Part shown: one piece after another, positions 1 to 18,631 of the stretch
Position numbering within the stretch: the stretch's first letter is position 1
How the letters are laid out: every line of letters starts with the position of its first letter
Assembly (NCBI GenBank): GCA_964530955.1
Contig: CAZHCL010000006.1
Location: 1-27,092 of the forward strand
Direction: 5' to 3'
DNA length: 27,092 nucleotides
From: Candidatus Woesearchaeota archaeon
GTDB taxonomy: Archaea; Nanobdellota; Nanobdellia; Pacearchaeales; GW2011-AR1
The notes under the pieces: model-generated
Told to the model about the DNA's origin: nothing
Seen by the model: only the letters and a program-made list of their open reading frames with translations
The model's database searches: none
Translations under genes and position numbers: made by a program

Positions 1-143
1 AAGAGGATGTCTGAAAGATCAAACGTCCTCCCCTGGGAAAAAGAGGTGTACTAAATAATTGAGGTAATAAGGATATATAAACTTTTTGATTCCTTGAATA
101 GGTGCTGAAAGTTGTTGCGTACAGCAAATAATTTGTCGTCGAT

Positions 144-240
144 AAACAGCTGTTTGGGGTGTTTACTGGTAGACAAACAGGTGTTTAAAGTAGTAGATGA
201 AGGTGTTTGTCTTATCAAAAAGGTGTTTGTTGGGGTGTTT
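144..240. repeat. Cluster of AAACAG[G/C]TGTTT / GGTGTTT motifs in the intergenic region
   Basis: Perfect palindrome AAACAGCTGTTT at 144-155; AAACAGGTGTTT at 175-186; GGTGTTT cores start at 158, 180, 202, 222 and 234. Confidence 0.85.
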
Positions 241-296
241 AATGGTGCTAATCTCTTATGTTGTGATTTGCCTTTATAGCCCTTAAAACAGCAATA

Positions 297-304
297 TTTA
301 AATA
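297..304 (+). promoter_or_regulatory. Archaeal TATA box for 327..980 (probably leaderless)
   Basis: TTTAAATA ending 23 nt before the ATG at 327. Confidence 0.6.
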
Positions 305-326
305 CTATAAGAGTTGTAATGTTTTT

Positions 327-980
327 ATGTTTGAATGGTTATTCAAAAAGAAGGAAAAAAAGCTTGAGCAAAAAACTCAAGAAGGGTTTAATTCTGTAAA
401 AAAAGATATAGATGCAGTTGGAAAGTGGATTAAGTACTTGGATTCGAGAGACAAACAGGTGTTTGATCTTCTAAATGAGTTAAAAGGAGATTTAGCGTCG
501 ATACATGATGAGCTTGATGGACTTAGTGAGGCTGTGGGAATAGTCGGAGGGGGAAGAAAAAACAAACAGGTGTTTGAAAAAACAGGTGTTTTGGACAAAC
601 AAACAGCTGTAGAAGGTGTTGAAGAACCTGTTCAAACAGCTGTTCAAACAGCCAATTTTTATGATATTTTGAAGAGTTTTAGCGGAAATGAAAGATTGCT
701 TATTTTTACCCTTATGAACAGCGAAATGAAGCTAAGTTATGAGGATCTGGCCCTTCTTTTGGGAAAAGAGAAGTCTACCGTTAGGGGACAGATAAATACT
801 ATAAAACAGAAAAGTGAAGGTATTATTATGGAGATAAGTGAGAAAAATGGGAAAAAGAGAGTCTTTGTACCCTCTGAAATAAGAGAAAAACTGCTCAAAT
901 ACGCAAAAGTGAGAGTTGGGAATAACCGAAAAGTTCGTGTTAAACGTCAAAATACTGAAAATCCTGAGGAAAAGGTCTGA
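327..980 (+). CDS. Hypothetical protein: N-terminal coiled coil, low-complexity linker, C-terminal winged-helix DNA-binding domain
   Basis: 217-aa ORF. The C-terminal segment SGNERLLIFTLMNSEMKLSYEDLALLLGKEKSTVRGQINTIKQK...EKNGKKRVFV has a wHTH pattern. The N-terminus has heptad character. Confidence 0.7.
   Translation: MFEWLFKKKEKKLEQKTQEGFNSVKKDIDAVGKWIKYLDSRDKQVFDLLNELKGDLASIHDELDGLSEAVGIVGGGRKNKQVFEKTGVLDKQTAVEGVEEPVQTAVQTANFYDILKSFSGNERLLIFTLMNSEMKLSYEDLALLLGKEKSTVRGQINTIKQKSEGIIMEISEKNGKKRVFVPSEIREKLLKYAKVRVGNNRKVRVKRQNTENPEEKV
449..652. repeat. Intragenic copies of the AAACAG[G/C]TGTT motif
   Basis: AGACAAACAGGTGTTT at 449-464 is identical to 171-186. AAACAGGTGTTT at 564-575 and 580-591; AAACAGCTGT at 601-610; AAACAGCTGTT at 634-644; AAACAGC at 646-652. 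Confidence 0.85.
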
Positions 981-1035
981 AAAACAGAAAAGTGAGAGTT
1001 AGCTCTTGGGAAAAAAGGGAGATAAAAATAAAAAA

Positions 1036-1158
1036 ATGGAAATAACAGAGAAAGAGAGGGAAAAATTGAGAGAGTTGCAAATTGAAAGCTTAAAAGAGAT
1101 AGTTGTAAAAGCTAACAAAATTTCGAGTTCAGGTAAAAGTGAGGAAAAATTGGGATAA
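1036..1158 (+). CDS. Possible 40-aa small protein (MEITEKEREKLRELQIESLKEIVVKANKISSSGKSEEKLG)
   Basis: ATG 1036 to TAA 1156-1158, read by hand (below the ORF-track cutoff). GGGAG lies upstream; charged helical composition. Confidence 0.3.
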   Translation: MEITEKEREKLRELQIESLKEIVVKANKISSSGKSEEKLG

Positions 1159-1303
1159 ATATCAATTTTTCTGAGTTGCTCTGGAAAAATAAGTTCAATA
1201 GAGCTTAAAAACCTCAAAAAAGAGAGTTTTAAGGCTTTATGGAAAGATGAGAGAAAAGGTGGAAAAGAGGTAGATTTATCTAGATAATCGTTTAAACGGC
1301 TAA

Positions 1304-2011
1304 CTAGATTTCTCTGAGCTGTATGATCGTCTGTAAAGAAGCTAATTGCTTGAACTCGGAAGGTATTGAAAGGAAGATTTTCTTGTTGTTTTCCTTGTTT
1401 TTCTGAATTGGAACTCCTTTTTTAATTATCTTTTGGATATAATCTCTTATTGAAGACTCTGAAAGCGAAAGTTTCTTTGCTATAAGAGGATAATCGACGA
1501 CAAAGCCTTCCTCCTGGAGCTGATAAAGTGTTGAAAAAACAAGCATTTCTTGATTGGTAAGTTTCTTAAATTTGCTTCTGATATCTTTCTTAATCGTGTC
1601 GAGAGATTTTAGAATCTCTGAGACTTGCTCAATCTGATCAATTCGGTCAGTTCTATTGGAAATGGGGGTGTGTTGGTTTGTTTGTTGGTTTGTTGGTTTG
1701 TTTGTTGGAACCCCATCATTTCCTATGGAAATACGATAAATATGAGGTTTTAAGGCTTTATAGGGCCAATTACCTGTTGGATTGTTGGATTGTTCGTCCT
1801 CATTTGTGTTTATTTCATGAATATCTGTTGGATTACTCTCAGACTGCTGTTTGTTGGTTTGTTTGTTTGTTTGTTGGGTAGATAGAACACTATTTATGGT
1901 TCGTTTAATTTCCTGCATTTCTGAAGAGATTGATAACATGCTGTCTTTTAATGATTCAATGTCTTGCTTTGCCCTAGAAAATGCCTCTTTTATAGGATCT
2001 TTTTTGTCCAT
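1304..2011 (-). CDS. Hypothetical protein: N-terminal coiled coil, Q/T/N-rich repeat linker, C-terminal winged-helix domain
   Basis: 235-aa ORF. wHTH-like LTNQEMLVFSTLYQLQEEGFVVDYPLIAKKLSLSESSIRDYIQKIIKKGVPIQKNKENNKKIFL; linker with QTNKQTNKQ / TNKPTNQQTNQ. Confidence 0.75.
   Translation of the reverse strand: MDKKDPIKEAFSRAKQDIESLKDSMLSISSEMQEIKRTINSVLSTQQTNKQTNKQQSESNPTDIHEINTNEDEQSNNPTGNWPYKALKPHIYRISIGNDGVPTNKPTNQQTNQHTPISNRTDRIDQIEQVSEILKSLDTIKKDIRSKFKKLTNQEMLVFSTLYQLQEEGFVVDYPLIAKKLSLSESSIRDYIQKIIKKGVPIQKNKENNKKIFLSIPSEFKQLASLQTIIQLREI
1671..1877. repeat. Intragenic TGTTGG / TGTT short-repeat tracts
   Basis: TGTTGG starts at 1671, 1683, 1691, 1703, 1775, 1783, 1826, 1852 and 1872, interspersed with TTTG tetramers. 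Confidence 0.8.
1711..1731 (-). promoter_or_regulatory. ORB-like (Orc1/Cdc6 origin recognition box) element inside a coding sequence
   Basis: Minus strand TTTCCATAGGAAATGATGGGG matches the oriC box at 6617-6637 (TTTCCATGGGAAACCATGGGG) at 18/21 positions. Confidence 0.6.
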
Positions 2012-2014
2012 TTA

Positions 2015-2347
2015 TTATTCTTGCTCGTCCAGATTATAAATATTGTTATGCTGAAGTTGATTTTTCATTTTCTCAGAGGATTGGGCTTTTGAGTATACTT
2101 CGAAAACTTGATTTGAAAGACGCCAACGTATTCTTTTTGAGTAGTCTTTGCCTTCCTTGTTCTTACTTATTGAAAGAACTAGCTTTTTCTTTTCTAATTC
2201 GAGAAGAAGTAACTTGGTGAATTCTTCATCTCTTGCAATTTCAGCCCCGATCTCTGATGTGAACTTAGATTCGGGAGAAATAGAGAAGAGATAGTGAAGT
2301 ATTTGTTCTGATATTTTATCTTTTTTCTTGTCGGATATTGTGGGCAT
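2015..2347 (-). CDS. Small winged-helix-like DNA-binding protein
   Basis: 110 aa. ISEQILHYLFSISPESKFTSEIGAEIARDEEFTKLLLLELEKKKLV...RIRWRLS has a wHTH pattern. Stop is 3 nt before the start of 1304..2011, so probably one operon. Minus-strand TTTAAATA at 2369-2376. Confidence 0.65.
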   Translation of the reverse strand: MPTISDKKKDKISEQILHYLFSISPESKFTSEIGAEIARDEEFTKLLLLELEKKKLVLSISKNKEGKDYSKRIRWRLSNQVFEVYSKAQSSEKMKNQLQHNNIYNLDEQE

Positions 2348-2449
2348 GGTAGAATATACACTGAGAGTTATTTAAAGATAATGGAAAAAGTTAAATACTT
2401 GTGATAGGATAATTTAGGACTTGTCTTTTATTCAAGATTAATAGTCAAA

Positions 2450-5032
2450 ATGGCAGAAATAAAATATATTGAACCGCACAAAACAGAAGAAGTAGCGGAA
2501 ACTCTGAACCCTTTGGTTAAAGAGTGGTTCTTTTCTAAGTTTAAGGACTTTAGTCTCACTCAGCTTTATGGTGTTAAGAATATTAATGACAGGAAGAACA
2601 TACTTGTAAGTGCGCCTACTGGGGGAACTAAGACTCTTACTGCCTTTTTAGGCATTCTTAACTATGTTGTTGGGCTTGCTTTGAAAAATGAACTTGAAGA
2701 TAAGATGTACGCCGTATATACTTCTCCTTTGAAAGCACTAAGTAATGATATTTTTGTGAATTTGATAAATCCTCTGGAGGAAATGAGTGCTCTTGCTGAA
2801 AAAAAAGGACTAAAAATGCAGAATATAAGGGTTGCTCTTAGGACTGGGGACACGACTGCCTCCGAGAGAGCTAAACAGGCAAGGAAAATACCTCATATTT
2901 ATGTTACAACCCCTGAATCTCTTGCAATTGTTCTGACTACTGAGAAGTTTGTTGAGGGAATTAGGGCTCTTGAGTTCATAATTGTGGATGAAATTCATGC
3001 TTTGACTAATAAAAGAGGAGTTTATCTCTCCCTCACTCTTGAAAGGCTATGTAATTATAGTGTAATTGAACCTGTTCGTATAGGATTGAGTGCTACAATC
3101 TCTCCTCTGGAGGAAATTGCCAAGTTTCTTGTGGGAAAAGATAGAGATTGTTTGATTGCGAGTGTTAAATTAAGTAAAAAGATAGAGATTGGACTTGATT
3201 TTCCTGGTGAAAGCATACTTGAAACTGAAAATGCGGAGAATCAAAAGAAGCTTTATCATCTTTTGGATGAATTAATACAGAAAAATAGGACTACACTTAT
3301 ATTTACCAATACTAGAGCGGCTACTGAGAGGATAATTCATTACCTTGATATGCATTTCCCGGGAAAATATGAGGGTTTAATTGGGGCGCATCATAGTTCG
3401 ATGTCCAAGGAAAAGAGATTTGAGATTGAAGATAAGCTTCGAAAGGGAGAACTGAAGGTTGTTGTTTCTTCGACCTCTCTTGAACTAGGAATAGATATTG
3501 GAAGCATAGACCTAGTTATTATGTTAAGAAGCCCAAAGTCGGTTTCAAGGGCATTACAGAGAATAGGAAGGGCAGGACACAAGCTACATGACAACCCTAG
3601 AGGGGAATTCATTGTTCTTGATAGAGATGATCTTGTTGAATGTGGAATATTGATGAAAGAAATGATAGAAGGTAAGATAGACAGAGCGGAAATACCTAAA
3701 AATTGTCTAGATGTTTTGGCTCAGCAGATATTTGGAATGGCTATCTCAAAGATATGGAACATTGATGAGATGCTTTCGACTATTAGAAAGAGTTATTGCT
3801 ATGAAAATCTGAAAGAAGAAGATTTTCTGGATATAATCAGTTATCTCGCAGGGGAATATGCCCTTGAACATAGAAATGTCTATGCTAAGATATGGTATGA
3901 TGCTGGAACGAAGCAGATAGGCAAAAGAGGGAAGATGGCTCGTGTGATTTATATGACTAATATAGGAACTATCGCTGAAGAAGGATTTATCAGTGTAGTA
4001 ATACAGAGTCCTGCTGAAAAAAGAGGAGAGATAATTGGAAAGATAGATGAAAGTTTTCTTGAAAGAATGAAGAGGGATGATGTTTTTGTCCTGGGGGGAG
4101 CAAAATATCAATTCTTATTTGCAAGAGGGATGAAAGCATATGTCCGGGCAGGGGTTACAAGAAATCCTACCATTCCTTCCTGGTTTTCAGAGCAACTGCC
4201 ATTAAGCATAGATGTCGCATTGGAAATAGGGAGGTTCAGAAAGCTTGTTAAAGAAAGGCTGAAGAAAAAAGAAGATGCAATATCATTCATTGAAGAGTAT
4301 ATCCATTGCAAAAAACATGTTGCTGAAGAAATATATGAATACTTCTATGAACAGGAAAAATTTGCGGAAGTTCCAGATTCAAACACAATAGTTGTTGAAA
4401 AATTCAAAGAAGATAGGGAATATATTATGTTTCATTCTCTTTATGGAAGAAGAGTTAATGATTCACTTGCCAGAGCGTATGCTTTTGCCGCTGCACGCCT
4501 AAAATATAGGGATGTTGAAATAGGAGTTAATGATAATGGATTCTTCATTTCAGGTACGGGCATAGATGAAAATAAAATTATTGATTTTGTGACGAGTAAA
4601 AATCTTGAAGAGATACTTAGAGAAGCTATTGAAAGAACTGAAGTTCTTGCAAGAAGGTTTAGACATTGTGCTGCTCGTTCTCTTATGATTCTTAGGAATT
4701 ACAAGGGAAGGGAGAAGAGTGTTGGAAAACAGCATGTGCACTCAGGATTCCTTCTTTTAGCTGTGAAAAAAATAAGTAATGAATTTCCCATACTTAGAGA
4801 AGCAAGAAGAGAGGTATTTGAGGATCTTATGGATGTTAATGGTGCCAAAAATGTACTAAAACTTATTGAGAGGGGTGAAGTTAAAATAAAGAAGATAAGA
4901 ACTCCTTTCGTCTCTCCGTTTGGAATAAATCTAATGCTTGCCGGAAGGAGTGACTTGATAAAGATGGAGGATAAGGCTAACTTCTTAAGGAGAATGCATG
5001 AGCTCCATCTGAAGGCAATTAAAGCAAAATGA
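2450..5032 (+). CDS. lhr: ATP-dependent Lhr-family (archaeal Lhr-core) SF2 helicase
   Basis: 860 aa; motifs APTGGTKT, SPLKALSND, RTGDT, TTPESL, DEIH, GLSAT, HHSSMS, SLELGIDIG, QRIGRAGH, LDVLAQ. Confidence 0.9.
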   Translation: MAEIKYIEPHKTEEVAETLNPLVKEWFFSKFKDFSLTQLYGVKNINDRKNILVSAPTGGTKTLTAFLGILNYVVGLALKNELEDKMYAVYTSPLKALSNDIFVNLINPLEEMSALAEKKGLKMQNIRVALRTGDTTASERAKQARKIPHIYVTTPESLAIVLTTEKFVEGIRALEFIIVDEIHALTNKRGVYLSLTLERLCNYSVIEPVRIGLSATISPLEEIAKFLVGKDRDCLIASVKLSKKIEIGLDFPGESILETENAENQKKLYHLLDELIQKNRTTLIFTNTRAATERIIHYLDMHFPGKYEGLIGAHHSSMSKEKRFEIEDKLRKGELKVVVSSTSLELGIDIGSIDLVIMLRSPKSVSRALQRIGRAGHKLHDNPRGEFIVLDRDDLVECGILMKEMIEGKIDRAEIPKNCLDVLAQQIFGMAISKIWNIDEMLSTIRKSYCYENLKEEDFLDIISYLAGEYALEHRNVYAKIWYDAGTKQIGKRGKMARVIYMTNIGTIAEEGFISVVIQSPAEKRGEIIGKIDESFLERMKRDDVFVLGGAKYQFLFARGMKAYVRAGVTRNPTIPSWFSEQLPLSIDVALEIGRFRKLVKERLKKKEDAISFIEEYIHCKKHVAEEIYEYFYEQEKFAEVPDSNTIVVEKFKEDREYIMFHSLYGRRVNDSLARAYAFAAARLKYRDVEIGVNDNGFFISGTGIDENKIIDFVTSKNLEEILREAIERTEVLARRFRHCAARSLMILRNYKGREKSVGKQHVHSGFLLLAVKKISNEFPILREARREVFEDLMDVNGAKNVLKLIERGEVKIKKIRTPFVSPFGINLMLAGRSDLIKMEDKANFLRRMHELHLKAIKAK

Positions 5033-5763
5033 AAGTAATATCTGAAAAAAACATAAAATACCTTGGGAAATGCGTTCTTATCGAAGAAGGAAAAGAAAAA
5101 GTGCTTGCTGTGGGAGACATACATATAGGATATGGGAAACAGGGAGAAGCCTATGGCGCGATGGTAGATGAAAGTTTATACAATGAAATGATACATGACT
5201 TTGAAGAGATTTTTTCTTACACTGAGAAGATTGATAAGATAATTCTCCTGGGAGATTTGAAACATTCATTTTCGGGACTCGAAAAGGGAGAAAAGTATGA
5301 TTTGGTTAATCTTTTTGATTACCTAGAAAAAAAATGCAAGGAAATTATAGTTACCAAAGGGAATCATGACAACTATCTCCTTGAAGTTACTTCAGGAAGA
5401 GGGATAAGGGTTACTGAAAATTACATTTGGAAGGGTTACTGCTTTTTTCATGGGGATAGGGATTTACTTGCGATTCATGCGAGAGAGGTGAAATGCTGGC
5501 TCATGGGGCATATGCATCCGGCTGTAAAATTGAGAGAGGAAACTAAGATGGAGAAATATAAGTGCTTCCTTTCGGGGGAATTTGAAGGGAGAAAAGTCAT
5601 AATCCTGCCTTGCTTTGCAGATGCAGGTGAGGGAATTGATGCGAGAGAGATTGAAAAAGAGATTGCCTGGAACCTTGATCTCGGAAAATTTGATGTTTAT
5701 GTCGTGGGAGAAGGGCTTGAAGTACTTGGTTTTGGTAAACTTAACAAGATAAGAGAAAAATAG
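5029..5763 (+). CDS. Calcineurin-like metallophosphoesterase (Lhr-associated, PdeM/MPE-like nuclease)
   Basis: GDIH, GDLKH, GNHD, HGD and GHMHP metal-binding motifs; 4-nt ATGA overlap with lhr. Confidence 0.85.
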   Translation: MKVISEKNIKYLGKCVLIEEGKEKVLAVGDIHIGYGKQGEAYGAMVDESLYNEMIHDFEEIFSYTEKIDKIILLGDLKHSFSGLEKGEKYDLVNLFDYLEKKCKEIIVTKGNHDNYLLEVTSGRGIRVTENYIWKGYCFFHGDRDLLAIHAREVKCWLMGHMHPAVKLREETKMEKYKCFLSGEFEGRKVIILPCFADAGEGIDAREIEKEIAWNLDLGKFDVYVVGEGLEVLGFGKLNKIREK

Positions 5764-5772
5764 TAAATAATA

Positions 5773-6237
5773 TTACTTCTTACTGAGAACTTTGTTCAAA
5801 TCCACTCTTGGTAGAGGAAAATGAGCTGGCAAACTAAGTTCTTGCTCTAGAGTAAGAGCTTTAATGGAACATTTTGCAAGAATGAAATTCATAAGAAAGC
5901 TACTTAGATCCTGAGAAATTATCTTATTTTTCCAATTTTTTAGAATTTCCTTAGAGTTTTCTTTTTCTAGAGAAAGAATAATTAAACCTTCGAATGAAAT
6001 CTGTGCGGTGGTCTTATCCTTTTTGCTCTCGCCTTTGATCTTCTCTTTACCAGGTGCGTCTTTATAGTCAATGGAAAATTTAAAAGATACTCTGATAATT
6101 TCGGAATCTCTGAGAATCTCAATATTGTCTTTTTCTATTTCTAAAAATTCAACATTTGTATTTATACTTCCATCTGCTTTGGAGTCTTTATCTCTTTCTG
6201 CAGTAATTTTAGTAAAATTAAAACCTAGAACTTTCAT
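5773..6237 (-). CDS. Conserved-type archaeal hypothetical protein, possibly SecB-like fold
   Basis: 154 aa with alternating beta strands (KVLGFNFTKITAER, VSFKFSIDY, ISFEGLII) followed by helices. The fold is my inference. Lies 10 nt downstream of the PRC-barrel gene. Confidence 0.5.
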   Translation of the reverse strand: MKVLGFNFTKITAERDKDSKADGSINTNVEFLEIEKDNIEILRDSEIIRVSFKFSIDYKDAPGKEKIKGESKKDKTTAQISFEGLIILSLEKENSKEILKNWKNKIISQDLSSFLMNFILAKCSIKALTLEQELSLPAHFPLPRVDLNKVLSKK

Positions 6238-6247
6238 TTTGACAGAA

Positions 6248-6508
6248 TTAGGCTAAGTCTTCTTCAGAAATAACGACAAAATCCCCTATTGCAATAATAG
6301 TATTGTAGGGAACAAGGACATCTCTTGAGGGAGAAACTTCGAGATTGAGGTTTCTTGTGTAGGGAGTAGGATCTTTGACAACAATTTGAATCAGCTCACC
6401 AGTTCTTGTCTCAAAAGTTATATCTTTAACTATTCCCAATCTTTTTCCCTCTTTTGTTACGACAAGCTTTCCAATTATTTCTTTTAATGGCTTTTTATCA
6501 AGAGTCAT
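6248..6508 (-). CDS. PRC-barrel domain protein (possibly CdpB-like)
   Basis: 86 aa; IIGKLVVTKEGKRLGIVKDITFETRTGEL...VPYNTIIAIGDFVVI is the PRC-barrel signature. Minus-strand TTTAAATA at 6530-6537. Confidence 0.85.
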   Translation of the reverse strand: MTLDKKPLKEIIGKLVVTKEGKRLGIVKDITFETRTGELIQIVVKDPTPYTRNLNLEVSPSRDVLVPYNTIIAIGDFVVISEEDLA

Positions 6509-6609
6509 AGTTGTTTGTAATATGATTCATATTTAAACTTTTCCATAATTCATCTTGCATGTTTTAATAAACAGTAATCTATTAGAAATAACTGTGAAAC
6601 GGGATTAAT

Positions 6610-6990
6610 ACCCTGTCCCCATGGTTTCCCATGGAAAAGAGAAAAGGTTTATAAACTAATCTGGATGTTTTTACTTTTATTTTTTATTTTTAAATATATA
6701 TATTATATATTATATATTATAAGATATATATTATAGTATGGTAGTTTAAGTTCTCTTTAATTTAAAAGATATTGAAATAATTTTTTAAGTTTTCCATGAG
6801 AAGAGAAGGTCTGAGGGGAGAGAAATTTTTTAAATTATATTAATTTGTTTTTTTTGATTAAAAAATTATTTAACGGTACTTTAATTTTTATATTGAGATT
6901 AGCGTCGATAAGATCAAAAGTTCGCTATTTCACAAATCAGAACAATATTAGTTTGAATTTTATGCTTTAGCTTTCCACAGGAAATAATGT
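6610..6990. other. Candidate chromosomal replication origin (oriC)
   Basis: Non-coding gap 6509-7052 directly upstream of cdc6. AT-only run about 6690-6737. ORB-like boxes at 6617-6637 (-, with GGGG), 6791-6818 (+, TTTCCATGAGAAG...TCTGAGGGG) and 6972-6989 (+, TTTCCACAGGAAATAATG). Confidence 0.8.
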
Positions 6991-7052
6991 TTATAGCATA
7001 GATAAGTTTATAATAAGAAACGTATTAAAATAAAAATAAAAAGAGAGGGAAG

Positions 7053-8261
7053 ATGGAAAAAGTAGATAAAATAGATGCAATCTTTAATTCGTTTGTCAGT
7101 AATAACTTATTTAAAAATAAATCCGTCCTTCAATCGAATTATAACCCTCAAAGTATAACTCACAGAGATGCACAAATAGAGTCTGTTGCTTCGATTCTCG
7201 CTCCTGCGCTAAGAGGAGAAAGGATAAGTAACCTTTTTCTTTACGGAAAAACTGGAACTGGCAAAACTCTATCAATACAACATGTGGGTGAGAAGATGAA
7301 TGTTCGTCTAAAGGAGATGGGTGAGGACTATCTTCGGTTTGTTTATGTGAATTGCAAGCTAAAAAAGGTGGCTGATACGGAGTATAGAATACTTGCGGAG
7401 ATAATTAGTGAGCTTGGGGGCAAAGTGCCTTCAACTGGGCTTCCAACTGACCAGGTTTATTCAAGATTTATTGACCTTATAGACCAGAAGAAGCAGATGA
7501 TTGTTCTTGTGCTTGATGAAATTGATCAGGCAGTGAAAAAAATATCTGACAACTTCATTTATTCTCTTACTAGACTAAATACTGAACTCAAAAATGCGCA
7601 GATAAGCATAATTGGAATAAGCAACAGTCTTACTTTTATGGATAATCTTGATCCAAGAGTAAGAAGCTCGCTTGGAGAAGAAGAAATAATTTTCCCGCCT
7701 TATAATGCTCTGCAATTGCAGGATATTTTAAAGGAAAGAGCAGACAATGCATTCAAAGATCAGGTTCTCGAGGAAGGAGTCATATCAAAATGTGCTGCGT
7801 ATGCTGCGAGAGAGCATGGAGATGCGAGGAGGGCTCTTGATCTCCTCAGGGTTGCGGGGGAAATTGCAGAAAGAGAGAATAGTAAGAACATAAAATTAGT
7901 ACATATAGATTCTGCAAACAATAAAATAGAAAGGGATAAAATGTTGGATATAATAGAAAGCGAGCCTAAACAATTTCAACTTGTGCTTCATTCAATATTT
8001 CTTCTTGAGAAGGGCAAAGAAGCTATCTTTACGGGAGAGGTTTACAATATGTACCAAGATGTATGCACCAAAACGAAAAATGAAGCCCTCACACAAAGAA
8101 GAGTTTCCGATATCCTTGCTGAATTTGATATGCTTGGATTGATTAACACTCATGTCATAAGCAAAGGAAGGCATGGACGGATGAGAGAGATAAAGCTCAT
8201 GCTTTCTCCAAATATAAGAGAAAAGGCGATAGAGATAATTGAGAAAGCAATATTCTCCTAG
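7053..8261 (+). CDS. cdc6: Orc1/Cdc6 replication initiation protein
   Basis: 402 aa; Walker A YGKTGTGKT, Walker B VLVLDEID, RVRSSL, GDARRALDLLR, C-terminal wH domain (ISKGRHGR). Upstream purine-rich GAGGG Shine-Dalgarno-like site. Confidence 0.95.
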   Translation: MEKVDKIDAIFNSFVSNNLFKNKSVLQSNYNPQSITHRDAQIESVASILAPALRGERISNLFLYGKTGTGKTLSIQHVGEKMNVRLKEMGEDYLRFVYVNCKLKKVADTEYRILAEIISELGGKVPSTGLPTDQVYSRFIDLIDQKKQMIVLVLDEIDQAVKKISDNFIYSLTRLNTELKNAQISIIGISNSLTFMDNLDPRVRSSLGEEEIIFPPYNALQLQDILKERADNAFKDQVLEEGVISKCAAYAAREHGDARRALDLLRVAGEIAERENSKNIKLVHIDSANNKIERDKMLDIIESEPKQFQLVLHSIFLLEKGKEAIFTGEVYNMYQDVCTKTKNEALTQRRVSDILAEFDMLGLINTHVISKGRHGRMREIKLMLSPNIREKAIEIIEKAIFS

Positions 8262-8273
8262 TCACACTACAAT

Positions 8274-9869
8274 ATGAACGAAGAGATATTAAAACTAATA
8301 AAACAGAAGGGAGTGCTGCTTGAGAAAGAGGTGTTCGATGTTTTTAACGAAATAAATGATGTGGAATCTGCCAGACATCTTCTTGAGACTCTCGAAAGAT
8401 TTTCTGGACAGAAGATGATTACTAAGTCTGCAATAAATAAAAATTTTAGTCTTGTCAGAAATTTAGGTAGTGCTTTACAAGGCGAAGAGAAAATTCTTGT
8501 GGAAAAGACTTTCATTAAGCTGGGTTTAAGCTTGGAGATAACAAAAGAAACTTCTATTGTTAGCAATCCTTCCATTAATGTAATTATTGAAAAGCCAAAG
8601 GTTGAAACTAGAAAGGAAGAAAGCTACAAAATCTTTTACTCTACAACTAGAAATGACAAAAAGCTTGAAGTTGCTGACTTTGTAGGGAGCTTTAGATCAA
8701 GATATCAGCAGTTGCAGAGAATATTAATGAACAGGCCAGATATGCAGAATCTTGTTTCTATAAACAAACTCGGGAGTGAAAGGAAAAATCATGTCATAAT
8801 CGGAATAGTCAGTGAGAAGAGGATTACTAAGAACAAAAATCTTATAATTAAAGTTGAAGACTTAACTGGGGAGATAAGTGTTCTTGTGAAAGCAGATAGA
8901 CCTGAAATTTATATGAAGGGAGAGGAATTGCTTCTGGATGATGTGGTTGCTATAAAAGCCTCTGGGAGTAGAGAGATGTTATTTGTTCAGGATATTTACT
9001 TTCCAGATGCATTTCTTTCTGAAAGGACTAGGTTCGATGAGGATGTTTGCATTGCTTTTCTTTCGGACATACACGCTGGAGGAGCTAAACATCTTCAGAA
9101 GAGCTTTGAAAATTTTCTTAATTGGATAAACACGGAAGATGAGATGGCAAAAAAGATAAAATATATATTTATTTCAGGGGATAATGTTGACGGAGTCGGA
9201 ATTTTCCCTGGACAGGAAGCTTTACTTAAATTGAAAAGCATGAAGGAGCAATACTCTTTACTTGCTTCCTATCTTGCTAAGATTCCTAAAAGAATAACTA
9301 TGTTTATGTGTCCGGGACAGCACGATGCAGTAAGAGTTGCTGAGCCTCAACCAATAATCGGAAGAAAATATGCTGAGCCTTTGTATAGTATAGAGAATCT
9401 TATTCTTGTGAGCAATCCGGCACTGGTTAAACTTTCTGAAAAAGAAAAAGAGTTCAAAGTAATGATGTATCATGGAGATAGTATACACACATTTATTCAT
9501 GAAATTCCTGAACTTAGGAGCATGAAGATGCATCCTGCCAAAGCAGTAAGGCATATGCTAAAGAGGAGACATCTTTTCCCAATTCATTCCGAGGCAATTT
9601 ATATCCCGGATGCTGAAAAAGATAATCTTGTTATTTCAGAAGTTCCTGATGTGCTCTGTACTGGAGAAGTTCACAGACTGGATATAGAAAATTATAATGG
9701 TGTTTTGATAATTACTGGAAGTTGCTGGCAGGGACAGACTTCTTTCGAGGAAAAGGTAGGAAATGTTCCCGATCCTTGTAAGGTCCCTATATTAAATCTT
9801 AAAACGAGAGAGCTGAAGGTTCTTGACTTTGGGAATGAAGATGAATTAAAGGAGTTGCATGTAAAATGA
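8274..9869 (+). CDS. polB: DNA polymerase D small (exonuclease) subunit DP1
   Basis: 531 aa; OB-fold (TKNKNLIIKVEDLTGEI), phosphoesterase motifs SDIH, GDNVDGVGIFPGQ, PGQHDAVRVAEPQP, YHGD, GEVH, SCWQGQTSFE; located between cdc6 and DP2. Confidence 0.93.
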   Translation: MNEEILKLIKQKGVLLEKEVFDVFNEINDVESARHLLETLERFSGQKMITKSAINKNFSLVRNLGSALQGEEKILVEKTFIKLGLSLEITKETSIVSNPSINVIIEKPKVETRKEESYKIFYSTTRNDKKLEVADFVGSFRSRYQQLQRILMNRPDMQNLVSINKLGSERKNHVIIGIVSEKRITKNKNLIIKVEDLTGEISVLVKADRPEIYMKGEELLLDDVVAIKASGSREMLFVQDIYFPDAFLSERTRFDEDVCIAFLSDIHAGGAKHLQKSFENFLNWINTEDEMAKKIKYIFISGDNVDGVGIFPGQEALLKLKSMKEQYSLLASYLAKIPKRITMFMCPGQHDAVRVAEPQPIIGRKYAEPLYSIENLILVSNPALVKLSEKEKEFKVMMYHGDSIHTFIHEIPELRSMKMHPAKAVRHMLKRRHLFPIHSEAIYIPDAEKDNLVISEVPDVLCTGEVHRLDIENYNGVLIITGSCWQGQTSFEEKVGNVPDPCKVPILNLKTRELKVLDFGNEDELKELHVK

Positions 9870-17722: not shown

Positions 17723-18631
17723 TTATTTAGTATGAAACTCAACTATATCTCTATCTTTCAAGGGATGTGCGAGACCTACTTTTTGATTGGGAAATTTGCT
17801 ACTTGGACCTGTGACTCTTGCTTCTTTTATTCTTGCTGAGAAACCTTTTAGAATTGATTCTGCTGCTTCTTTTACAGTTGCGTTCATCCTCAGAATCATA
17901 GGGTCTTTTGCTGGTTGTTTTCCAGGTTCTTTAGTATAAACTCTGATAAGATTCATTGAACTGGCAATTTTGCTCTTTAATTCTTTAATTCCTTCCCCAG
18001 TCAAAGAGGAGACTAATAGTGCGTTAAGTTTTTTGCTCTTTATTTTCTCAGTTAGTTTTCTTTTATCTTCCTCTGAAAGAATATCAGACTTATTTATTGC
18101 TATAATCTTTTTTCCTGTGGAGCGTGAAAGAAAAGGAGTAATCTTTTCCATTTCATTTAGGTTGGAAAGAACAAGTATTATGCAATCTGCTGTGTGAACT
18201 ATTCCCGAATCGAAATATTCTGAGCCTATGCTTGGCAAATCAACTACCTGTGCTCTAAATCCTTCATGGTCAAGGCTTCCTACTTCTGGAGAGGAAGTGG
18301 TAAACTGATTTTGAGAGATTTTTGGCTTTGCATTTGTTAATTTTGCAAGCAGAGAAGACTTTCCTGAATTTGTTAGGCCTAGAAGAACGCACTGAAAGCC
18401 CTCTTTTCTTATTGCCTTAATGGTTGTTTTTCCTACTTTCTTACTCTTTTCTTTCTTTTCTATGAATCTTCTAAGCCTGTTTTTTAGTTCTGCCACATGA
18501 TGCTCACTTGATTTATGCTTTGGTGCTGCTCTAATCATTTCCTCCATTGCAGCTATCTTCTCATCCATAGTTACTGCTCTAGCATATTGTTTCTCTGCAT
18601 TTACATATTCATATCCAGCATTAAGGGGCAT
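17723..18631 (-). CDS. DRG/OBG-like GTP-binding protein with C-terminal TGS domain
   Basis: N-terminal APKHKSSE helical region, G1 GLTNSGKS, G2 FTT, G3-position DLPS, G4 NKSD, TGS IRVYTKEPG...LKDRDIVEFH. Confidence 0.85.
   Translation of the reverse strand: MPLNAGYEYVNAEKQYARAVTMDEKIAAMEEMIRAAPKHKSSEHHVAELKNRLRRFIEKKEKSKKVGKTTIKAIRKEGFQCVLLGLTNSGKSSLLAKLTNAKPKISQNQFTTSSPEVGSLDHEGFRAQVVDLPSIGSEYFDSGIVHTADCIILVLSNLNEMEKITPFLSRSTGKKIIAINKSDILSEEDKRKLTEKIKSKKLNALLVSSLTGEGIKELKSKIASSMNLIRVYTKEPGKQPAKDPMILRMNATVKEAAESILKGFSARIKEARVTGPSSKFPNQKVGLAHPLKDRDIVEFHTK

Follow-up and report, generated by a model that had tools for sequence, protein, structure and literature searches.

The window analysed here, the first 27,092 bases of contig C6 (46,645 bases), belongs to a DPANN-type archaeal genome of 761 kb (26 contigs, 83% complete), whose nearest relatives carry the labels Pacearchaeota, Woesearchaeota or Nanoarchaeota. 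Near its left end lies a module of three small genes, two of which hold conserved DNA words within their own coding sequence. An initial annotation had placed three open reading frames (ORFs) there, and all three are present as placed: ORF1 (positions 327–980, plus strand, 217 amino acids [aa]), ORF2 (1304–2011, minus strand, 235 aa), which is convergent with ORF1, and ORF3 (2015–2347, minus strand, 110 aa), which ends 3 nt before the start of ORF2 on the same strand and forms an apparent operon with it. Beyond ORF3 follow a gene for an Lhr-like helicase (2450–5032), a metallophosphoesterase gene and two small genes, and then the canonical replication origin oriC, an AT-rich spacer (6509–7052) upstream of the orc1/cdc6 gene (7053–8261, plus strand). 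The gene for the PolD small subunit (8274–9869) comes directly after cdc6. The distance between the module and oriC/cdc6 (6509–8261), earlier estimated at about 4–6 kb, was measured as 4.5–6 kb.

To follow this arrangement across species, 80 orthologous loci from different species, with ORF1 protein identities of 57–77%, served as the main comparison set (some counts use 81 loci). ORF2 is convergent with ORF1 in 79 of the 80 loci and ORF3 is present in 74, and the order ORF1, ORF2, ORF3, Lhr, metallophosphoesterase, two small genes, cdc6, PolD is retained wherever contigs extend far enough. Among the genomes searched, the module was detected in 25 of 27 from its own family, and several further families of the class have it as well; an unpublished genome (G360) enters this tally through a weak hit only and underlies none of the claims. 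A check of synteny with cdc6 and PolD across DPANN genomes had been suggested; linkage to cdc6/oriC is also kept across families, as is the succession ORF1, ORF2, ORF3, Lhr, cdc6, and ORF1 lies 5–15 kb from the main cdc6 in 8 of 10 genomes of other families. That the module stays 5–15 kb from cdc6/oriC in most lineages searched is strongly supported. On the other side of ORF1, no conserved partner such as ParA was found among the upstream genes of the orthologous loci, and gene content is not conserved there, so that ORF1 marks the edge of the conserved origin-proximal block. The region upstream of ORF1 (0.4–8 kb, loci L003–L082) contains many small ORFs of varying content and may be a variable island beside the array described below. 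The helicase and metallophosphoesterase genes (2450–5763) are a conserved pair that separates the module from oriC in most loci.

The AF2 model of ORF1 (mean predicted local distance difference test score [pLDDT] of 68) comprises a long helix (residues 3–74), a disordered stretch (75–104) and a winged helix (105–198), and the helix is preceded by an aromatic-basic tip, MFEWLFKKK. Its best fold matches are AbfR2/Lrs14, MepR/MarR and CadC/SmtB (ArsR), all generic winged-helix regulators, which agrees with the winged-helix-like C-terminal domain proposed in the initial annotation. ORF1 has 2087 homologues and matches no Pfam family above threshold. ORF2 exhibits the same layout of helix, repeat linker and winged helix, with homologues in 754 representative clusters. 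It alone just passes the threshold of a Pfam family, HTH_11 (PF08279; 25.5 bits against a cut-off of 25, E 1.2e-5), and also shows weak matches to HTH_36 and DnaD_N. Pairwise similarity between the two proteins is weak (BLASTP E 0.004, 22% identity). Profile comparison, however, aligns them across the winged helix with a probability of 94.5% (E 8e-8), and the hidden Markov model (HMM) of ORF1 matches ORF2-type proteins of distant loci across positions 11–169, with E-values down to 1.7e-9. These profile alignments and HMM matches uphold the proposed paralogy and the common architecture; judged by sequence, ORF1 and ORF2 are paralogues that consist of a long helix, a disordered linker and a winged helix. 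The predicted layout of ORF3 is helix-helix-hairpin-helix (model mean pLDDT 71.5). EarA profile matches were obtained in 11 of 22 orthologues (best E 2e-4, under the family cut-off), and PadR/LmrR-like fold matches are weak (E 0.1–0.2), weakly suggesting a small winged-helix-like protein of the PadR/EarA type. None of the three proteins gave a ParB-family (E up to 1) or Rep-family match in Pfam, and the Pfam search revealed no ATPase or helicase-loader features in them. Moreover, the listed fold matches of ORF1 include neither a Cdt1 nor a WhiP chain, and its model contains a single winged helix.

ORF1 is accompanied by an array of [GC]TGTTT half-sites and AAACAG[C/G]TGTTT palindromes that extends from about -190 to +320 relative to its start. 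With up to one mismatch, AACAGSTGTT occurs 17 times in the window against 3.0 expected, a count reached by none of 100 shuffles, and 15 of these 17 matches fall within 145–644. Exact sites number 10 in the whole 761-kb genome; six are inside the ORF1 cluster and the other four are scattered at about chance level. The upstream part of the array (144–260, plus strand) contains the palindromes AAACAGCTGTTT (144–155) and AAACAGGTGTTT (175–186) and direct GTGTTT half-sites at 159, 203, 223 and 235. It is followed by a TATA-like box, ATATTTAAATAC (294–305, plus strand), a putative promoter element about 25–30 nt ahead of the ORF1 start, which corresponds to a conserved TATA-like AATATTTAAATAG in the aligned regions upstream of ORF1. 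Within ORF1, sites are located at 453–464, 564–575, 580–591, 601–611 and 634–645 (plus strand), together with a half-site at 646–651. Across 80 loci, the exact 10-mer recurs at fixed offsets of +127, +238, (+254), +275 and +308 in ORF1 and at about -149 upstream in most loci, and it occurs 4.7 times per kb within ORF1 and 2.7 times per kb in the preceding 400 bp, compared with 0.04 per kb in 964 kb of flanking sequence. It is strongly supported that this array is essentially the sole one of its kind in the genome. Plus-oriented [GC]TGTTT half-sites average about 6.6 per locus in the interval -300 to 0 of ORF1 (81 loci), and their spacings peak at 10–12, 21–22, 31–33, 42–43 and 52–54 bp. Such multiples of about 10.6 bp place the half-sites on one face of the helix. 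Since array sites lie upstream of the TATA-like box, and since some loci carry a CTGTTTAAACAG dyad between this box and the start codon, ORF1 is likely to be autoregulated, whatever other roles the array may have. A reading of CAGCTG as a PvuII-type restriction site was rejected, because CAGGTG, which is not palindromic, accounts for half of the sites.

The motif is read in two frames of ORF1, as AAA CAG GTG TTT (K-Q-V-F) and as cAA ACA GCT GTt (Q-T-A-V), and the codons at motif positions are close to invariant. Gln is encoded by CAG in 78 of 78 cases (background 0.40), Thr by ACA in 80 of 80 (0.37), Val by GTG in 42 of 42 (0.17), Ala by GCT in 54 of 55 (0.37) and Leu by CTG in 60 of 65 (0.07). 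Residues 45 and 82 alternate between Val and Leu because the centre of the DNA word alternates between G and C. Normalised synonymous entropy is 0.166 for the 20 motif codons and 0.602 for the 132 others (Mann-Whitney p 4e-8, a value inflated by the relatedness of the loci). The initial annotation had held that the linkers are encoded by DNA repeats and had proposed looking for conservation of the motifs at synonymous sites of orthologues; the ORF1 palindromes agree on both counts, and selection of the motif as DNA within the coding sequence is strongly supported by these codon data.

If ORF1-type proteins recognise the motif in their own gene, a change of the recognition helix should be accompanied by a change of the DNA word. 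Homologues with the recognition helix KSTxRGQINxIK (class 1) carry AAACAG|CTGTTT-type words, two of them with a CACGTG centre instead. Homologues with VTVRRHINDxK (class 2; seven loci in four families) have TGAACGTTCA palindromes instead, in the corresponding part of the linker and likewise read in two frames (M-N-V-Q and E-R-S). In class 2 the sites are within the ORF only, none being found in the 300 bp upstream of the gene. In a third, more distant class, the N-terminal module is kept, the DNA-binding domain is a different one, and 11-bp phased repeats of the [AG]T[TC]CCCA type are found at the protein's own gene. Three classes of DNA-binding domain with three words, each at its own gene, thus fit the prediction of self-recognition and support the view, earlier put forward as self-targeting, that each ORF1-type protein binds its own gene. 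The N-terminal module, defined by the aromatic-basic tip and the signature SFxxVKxD....WIxHL, is retained even in proteins whose DNA-binding domain and motif are different ones; because it remains constant while they change, it is probably the effector end of the protein.

The linker of ORF2 contains a feature absent from the initial annotation, namely a putative Orc1/Cdc6-type origin recognition box (ORB) with a G-string, TTTCCATAGGAAATGATGGGGTTCC (1705–1730, minus strand), which encodes S-I-G-N-D-G-V-P. The box has the dyad core of ORBs, TCCAnnGGAAA, followed a few bases on by a G-string, and its orthologue consensus is TCCACAGGAAATGAAGGGGTTCC. In the 761-kb genome, the pattern TCCAnnGGAA[AG]N3-5GGGG occurs twice only, in oriC (6617–6635) and in ORF2 (1711–1729), and the ORF2 box fits the ORB pattern with G-string better than most oriC boxes of the same loci. 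Its conserved linker peptide, S-[IT]-G-N-[ED]-G-V-P-T, is encoded as TCC ACA GGA AAT GAA GGG GTT CCA, with nearly fixed codons (TCC 56/57, GGA 49/49, GGG 53/55, GTT 56/57, GAC 50/50). Synonymous entropy at these codons is 0.162, against 0.778 elsewhere (p 1e-9). ORF2 contains an ORB in about 62 of the 81 close loci, and 16 of 20 loci from other families have one there as well. Where ORBs in ORF2 are paired (L037, L068 and L080), the two G-strings point towards each other across about 60 bp, the opposite of the arrangement at oriC of this genome. In Thermococcales, an ORB/mini-ORB cluster lies inside the dp1 gene for the PolD small subunit and is bound by Cdc6/Orc1 in vivo (Matsunaga et al. 2007, PMC1904270). 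Pyrococcus ORB1/2/3 oligonucleotides bind Cdc6, and their cores are identical to the ORF2 core TTCCAnnGGAAATGAA (PMC1904270). On codon usage and pattern, it is strongly supported that the ORF2 linker carries a selected DNA box of the type bound by archaeal Orc1/Cdc6. A further exact ORB core, TCCACAGGAAA (18111–18121, minus strand), lies far from oriC.

The ORF2 box is adjoined by a tetranucleotide repeat (1672–1707, minus strand), (ACAA)n-like and made of GTTT/GTTG units, and a second GTTT/GTTG block lies at 1849–1876 (minus strand) of the linker; these are the repeats by which the ORF2 linker, as proposed, is encoded. Most orthologues have (ACAG)n after the ORB, read T-D-R-Q, and the (ACAA)n-like repeat of the window is read T-N-K-Q. 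In some loci, a second half-box occurs beyond the tetranucleotide repeat. ORF2-like genes of other families (L151, L153, L154, L156 and L161) retain the ORB codons for 'S(T)GNEGV', followed by (ATTC)n or (CAAT)n microsatellites. Related words are also present in the promoters of these same five genes, one of which has six 11-bp-spaced CTGGACACACT repeats upstream.

The origin itself exhibits standard anatomy, with a minus-strand ORB with G-string (6611–6636), an AT-only unwinding element (about 6670–6745) and, on the plus strand, an ORB-like box (6793–6820) and a mini-ORB (6973–6985). This succession of a minus-strand ORB with G-string, AT-only tract and plus-strand ORB-like boxes is conserved in 29 loci, and ORB cores are enriched in the 29 orthologous cdc6-upstream regions. 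The unwinding element is made of conserved TATATTATA-type words and not just AT-rich sequence, a 9-mer being common to 23 of the 29 regions.

Taken together, these observations lead us to propose, with a probability of roughly 0.55, that the locus forms a nucleoprotein platform close to the origin, with the genes of its binding proteins both encoding it and containing its sites. ORF1 would dimerise via its long N-terminal helix, and its winged helices would bind cooperatively, on one DNA face, to the phased array of half-sites and palindromes of about 500 bp, covering the promoter-distal region and the 5' half of ORF1. A single large complex per chromosome would result, which would also limit ORF1 expression. 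Orc1/Cdc6 would dock at the ORB in ORF2, the ORF2 protein would probably bind the adjoining tetranucleotide repeats, and the N-terminal module of ORF1, the probable effector end, would do the downstream work. The most likely job of such a platform would be to tether or organise origin-proximal DNA, in a centromere-like or anchoring manner coupled to the initiator, and this is the role that we find most attractive. In its most specific form, the proposal is of a DPANN (Nanobdellota) lineage-specific origin-organising centre, in which paralogous array-binders with exchangeable DNA-binding domains and sites in their own linker codons, together with Orc1/Cdc6 at an intragenic ORB, build one centromere-like or membrane-anchored complex beside oriC and couple chromosome positioning or segregation to initiation. 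We advance this form tentatively, as a possibility with the odds against it.

Several observations weigh against such a platform. The ORF1 motif (motif A) is not enriched in the 29 cdc6-upstream regions at oriC, and neither are motifs B and C (described below), so that any link of the module to replication would be by its position and the ORB only. Family f69, where the sole cdc6-like gene found is a divergent one, has the ORF1 module about 70 kb away from it. The genome already encodes SMC and two ParA/MinD-like ATPases, and an extra segregation device is therefore not required. The covariation of helix and word rests on about three specificity classes, whose members are related and not independent, and it is purely conjectural that the N-terminal tip acts on a membrane or a partner. 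Furthermore, an array of sites at and inside a gene is also expected from strong autoregulation.

Plain autoregulation is, accordingly, the main rival. ORF1-3 would then be ordinary transcription factors whose operators reach into the coding DNA of a compact genome, Orc1/Cdc6 at the ORB would merely repress or time the ORF2-ORF3 operon, and the locus would have no structural or positional role. The promoter-side sites and dyad noted above, fold matches that are all of repressor type (MarR, ArsR, Lrs14, PadR) and the location of the distant relatives' arrays, mainly in their own promoters, all fit this explanation, and archaeal Orc1 proteins are known as transcription regulators. However, a regulator with itself as the only dense genomic target has no output, and conservation of ORF1 at 60–77% identity points to a function beyond a self-loop. 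The array, helically phased over about 500 bp, far exceeds operator needs, the class 2 homologues have their sites within the ORF and none found in the 300 bp upstream, and the location beside oriC is conserved. We thus regard simple autoregulation as rather unlikely to be the whole explanation. Titration of the initiator, as by datA, appears more doubtful. The near-consensus ORB 5 kb from oriC, aided by ORF2 and ORF1, would sequester or inactivate Orc1/Cdc6 once replicated and so block re-initiation. Such a function would suit the closer fit of the ORF2 box than of most oriC boxes to the pattern, its conservation across deep divergence, the early replication of a locus only 5–8 kb from oriC and the documented binding of Cdc6 to the off-origin ORB cluster in dp1 (PMC1904270). 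Yet one or two boxes per locus provide a small capacity, no factor promoting ATP hydrolysis is evident, and the larger ORF1 array and its covariation with the ORF1 helix would be left unexplained.

The initial annotation had proposed an initiator, second-origin or centromere-like module, and the first two of these found no support. A second replication origin, or the origin of an integrated replicon with its own winged-helix initiator in the manner of iteron/Rep systems, lambda O or Sulfolobus WhiP at oriC3, could account for phased direct and inverted repeats beside a winged-helix gene, which resemble iterons and Rep operators, and for the presence of an ORB, the weak HTH_36 and DnaD_N matches of ORF2 and the variable gene content upstream of ORF1. 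Nevertheless, no AT-only tract is found in 981–2011, and the ORF1-ORF2 spacer is purine-rich with 31% G+C, as opposed to the pure-AT tract at oriC. The paired ORBs have their G-strings facing each other, and the canonical arrangement, with dyads towards the element, is found at 6509–7052 instead. The module contains no helicase, primase or AAA+ partner, its proteins lack ATPase and helicase-loader features, and the ORF1 motif is not enriched at oriC. Finally, the module has been conserved vertically and keeps the same chromosomal surroundings, and no ORF1 relative was found in viral contigs, on which ground a mobile-element origin of the module was also rejected. These results make a second origin very improbable. 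The lowest probability falls to an action of the motifs in RNA, as mRNA structure or as a protein-binding site in the transcript, or to their having arisen neutrally from repeat slippage and selection on the protein. As mRNA, the region with the palindromes folds with mild stability (440–660, z -1.77), and the ORF2 linker does hold true microsatellites whose copy number varies between species. The fold z-score is, however, unremarkable, as 9 of 200 shuffles fold equally well, and Rfam gave no match within 1–7100 at E up to 1. The motif is also conserved in the DNA preceding the TATA-like box, which is probably not transcribed, it is kept in two reading frames with the amino acid following the degeneracy of the DNA, and the ORB matches a known double-stranded DNA site.

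The nearest precedents for an origin-proximal platform written into the genes of its own binders are the Thermococcales dp1 ORB cluster, parS inside parB and the iteron/Rep systems. Literature searches on Pacearchaeota or DPANN origin modules returned nothing relevant, and no paper describing the module was found. Like ORF2, dp1 holds ORB-type boxes, with the core TTCCAnnGGAAATGAA, in a coding gene a few kb from oriC/cdc6 and conserved among relatives (PMC1904270). The ORF2 box differs in being located in the disordered-linker codons of a gene for a DNA-binding protein, on the other side of oriC from PolD, in having a tetranucleotide repeat after it and in the presence of a paralogous partner gene with a different, much larger array. 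ParB-parS and Noc systems use palindromic sites of 14–16 bp clustered near the origin (parS for ParB and the Noc-binding sites, NBS, for Noc), Bacillus subtilis has a parS inside the spo0J/parB gene, and Noc has an N-terminal membrane-binding helix. The resemblance lies in sites inside the binder's own gene near the origin and in a large complex, here predicted, at a unique chromosomal place. Unlike those systems, ORF1-3 have no ParB fold, CTPase domain or Pfam ParB match, the order of domains in ORF1 is coiled coil and then winged helix, the ORF1 sites form helically phased half-site arrays whereas parS sites are dispersed, and no ParA gene is adjacent.

Iteron initiators such as RepA of pPS10 and pi of R6K are winged-helix proteins that act on phased direct and inverted repeats at their own gene and autoregulate. 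ORF1 is similarly a winged-helix protein with phased direct and inverted repeats at its own gene, to which it is predicted to bind. In contrast, the module is chromosomal and vertically inherited, has no Rep family match and no unwinding element, and was not found on viral contigs; the ORF1 model, moreover, shows a single winged helix after a 70-residue helix instead of the two in tandem of iteron Rep proteins (Rep_3/RepA WH1-WH2). RacA of sporulating Bacillus, a coiled-coil and winged-helix protein, binds inverted repeats (ram) near oriC and positions the origin region; its winged helix is N-terminal and of MerR type, and it has about 25 dispersed sites. The combination of such a protein with inverted repeats near oriC is shared, but ORF1 has the reverse domain order, and its sites are all gathered in a single 500-bp array that overlaps the gene. 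WhiP, which acts at oriC3 of Sulfolobus, is reportedly a Cdt1-like initiator with two winged helices at a mapped origin. It likewise exemplifies an archaeal winged-helix protein gene adjoining the DNA element on which the protein presumably acts, although ORF1 and ORF2 have one generic winged helix each and no origin anatomy around them. The Sulfolobus origin-binding protein UBP/ucm (PMC12141716) was considered as a relative and set aside, as it has a different fold and is unrelated to the module.

Origin positioning, segregation and control are largely unknown in DPANN and in archaea generally. The module, which occurs in nearly all searched genomes of its family, shows tight conservation and is physically linked both to oriC and to a box of initiator type, is a tangible candidate for a part in these processes. 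An origin-organising centre of the kind proposed would serve in archaea as a functional counterpart of ParB-parS or RacA, assembled from unrelated components. The locus also offers an unusually clean natural case of dual coding, in which a disordered linker retains one DNA word in two frames, the residue encoded tracks the degeneracy of that site, and a different recognition helix comes with a different word. As regards annotation, 'low-complexity linkers' of small DNA-binding proteins can be cis-elements, and ORB scans restricted to intergenic DNA overlook conserved initiator boxes.

Between the convergent ORF1 and ORF2 lies a hairpin, GAGGAAAAATTG...CAATTTTTCTGAG (1143–1175, plus strand; fold -16.6 kcal/mol), which recurs in many loci and is likely a terminator. 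The same spacer holds a 50-aa ORF (1006–1158, plus strand; peptide ..EKEREKLRELQIESLKEIV..KSEEKLG), which may be a young micro-protein or merely translated repeats; as it is recognisable in only a few of the closest loci (L005, L003 and L032), it was not counted in the module.

Two further motifs accompany the array, for which ORF2 and ORF3 are candidate binders. Motif C, the direct repeat AAAAGTGAGAGTT, is located at 905–917 (ORF1 codons K194–V197) and at 988–1000, right after the stop codon (both plus strand), with a third, shorter copy in the spacer (1136–1143). Its AAAGTGAGAGT word has two copies in the genome, both of them here. A copy is present at +550 to +600 in 62 loci and at +650 to +700 in 28, and the V195 codon of ORF1 is GTG in 79 of 79 cases. 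Motif B is a CG-rich near-palindrome, TTGTCGWCGATA, found upstream of ORF1, within ORF1 and within ORF2. Its first copy, TTGTCGTCGATA (131–144; near-palindrome TATCGWCGATA), lies at the upstream edge of the ORF1 array, the variant AGCGTCGATA occupies 494–503 (ORF1 codons S57 S58 I59), and ATCGACGACAAA (1493–1504), in the winged-helix-coding part of ORF2, forms a perfect 12-nt inverted repeat with 132–143. Across loci, TCGWCGR-type matches number 33 at -200 to -100, 44 at +100 to +200 and 45 at +1000 to +1300 (in ORF2) relative to ORF1; the TCG codons of the motif in ORF1 are kept in 57 of 63 and 43 of 51 cases, and TCGWCGAT has only seven sites in the 761-kb genome. The variant AGCGTCGATA also occurs in oriC (6901–6912), and genomic copies of motif B are found at C7:35662 and C16:15697, one of them inside a 119-aa winged-helix gene of contig C16 that is weakly similar to ORF1.

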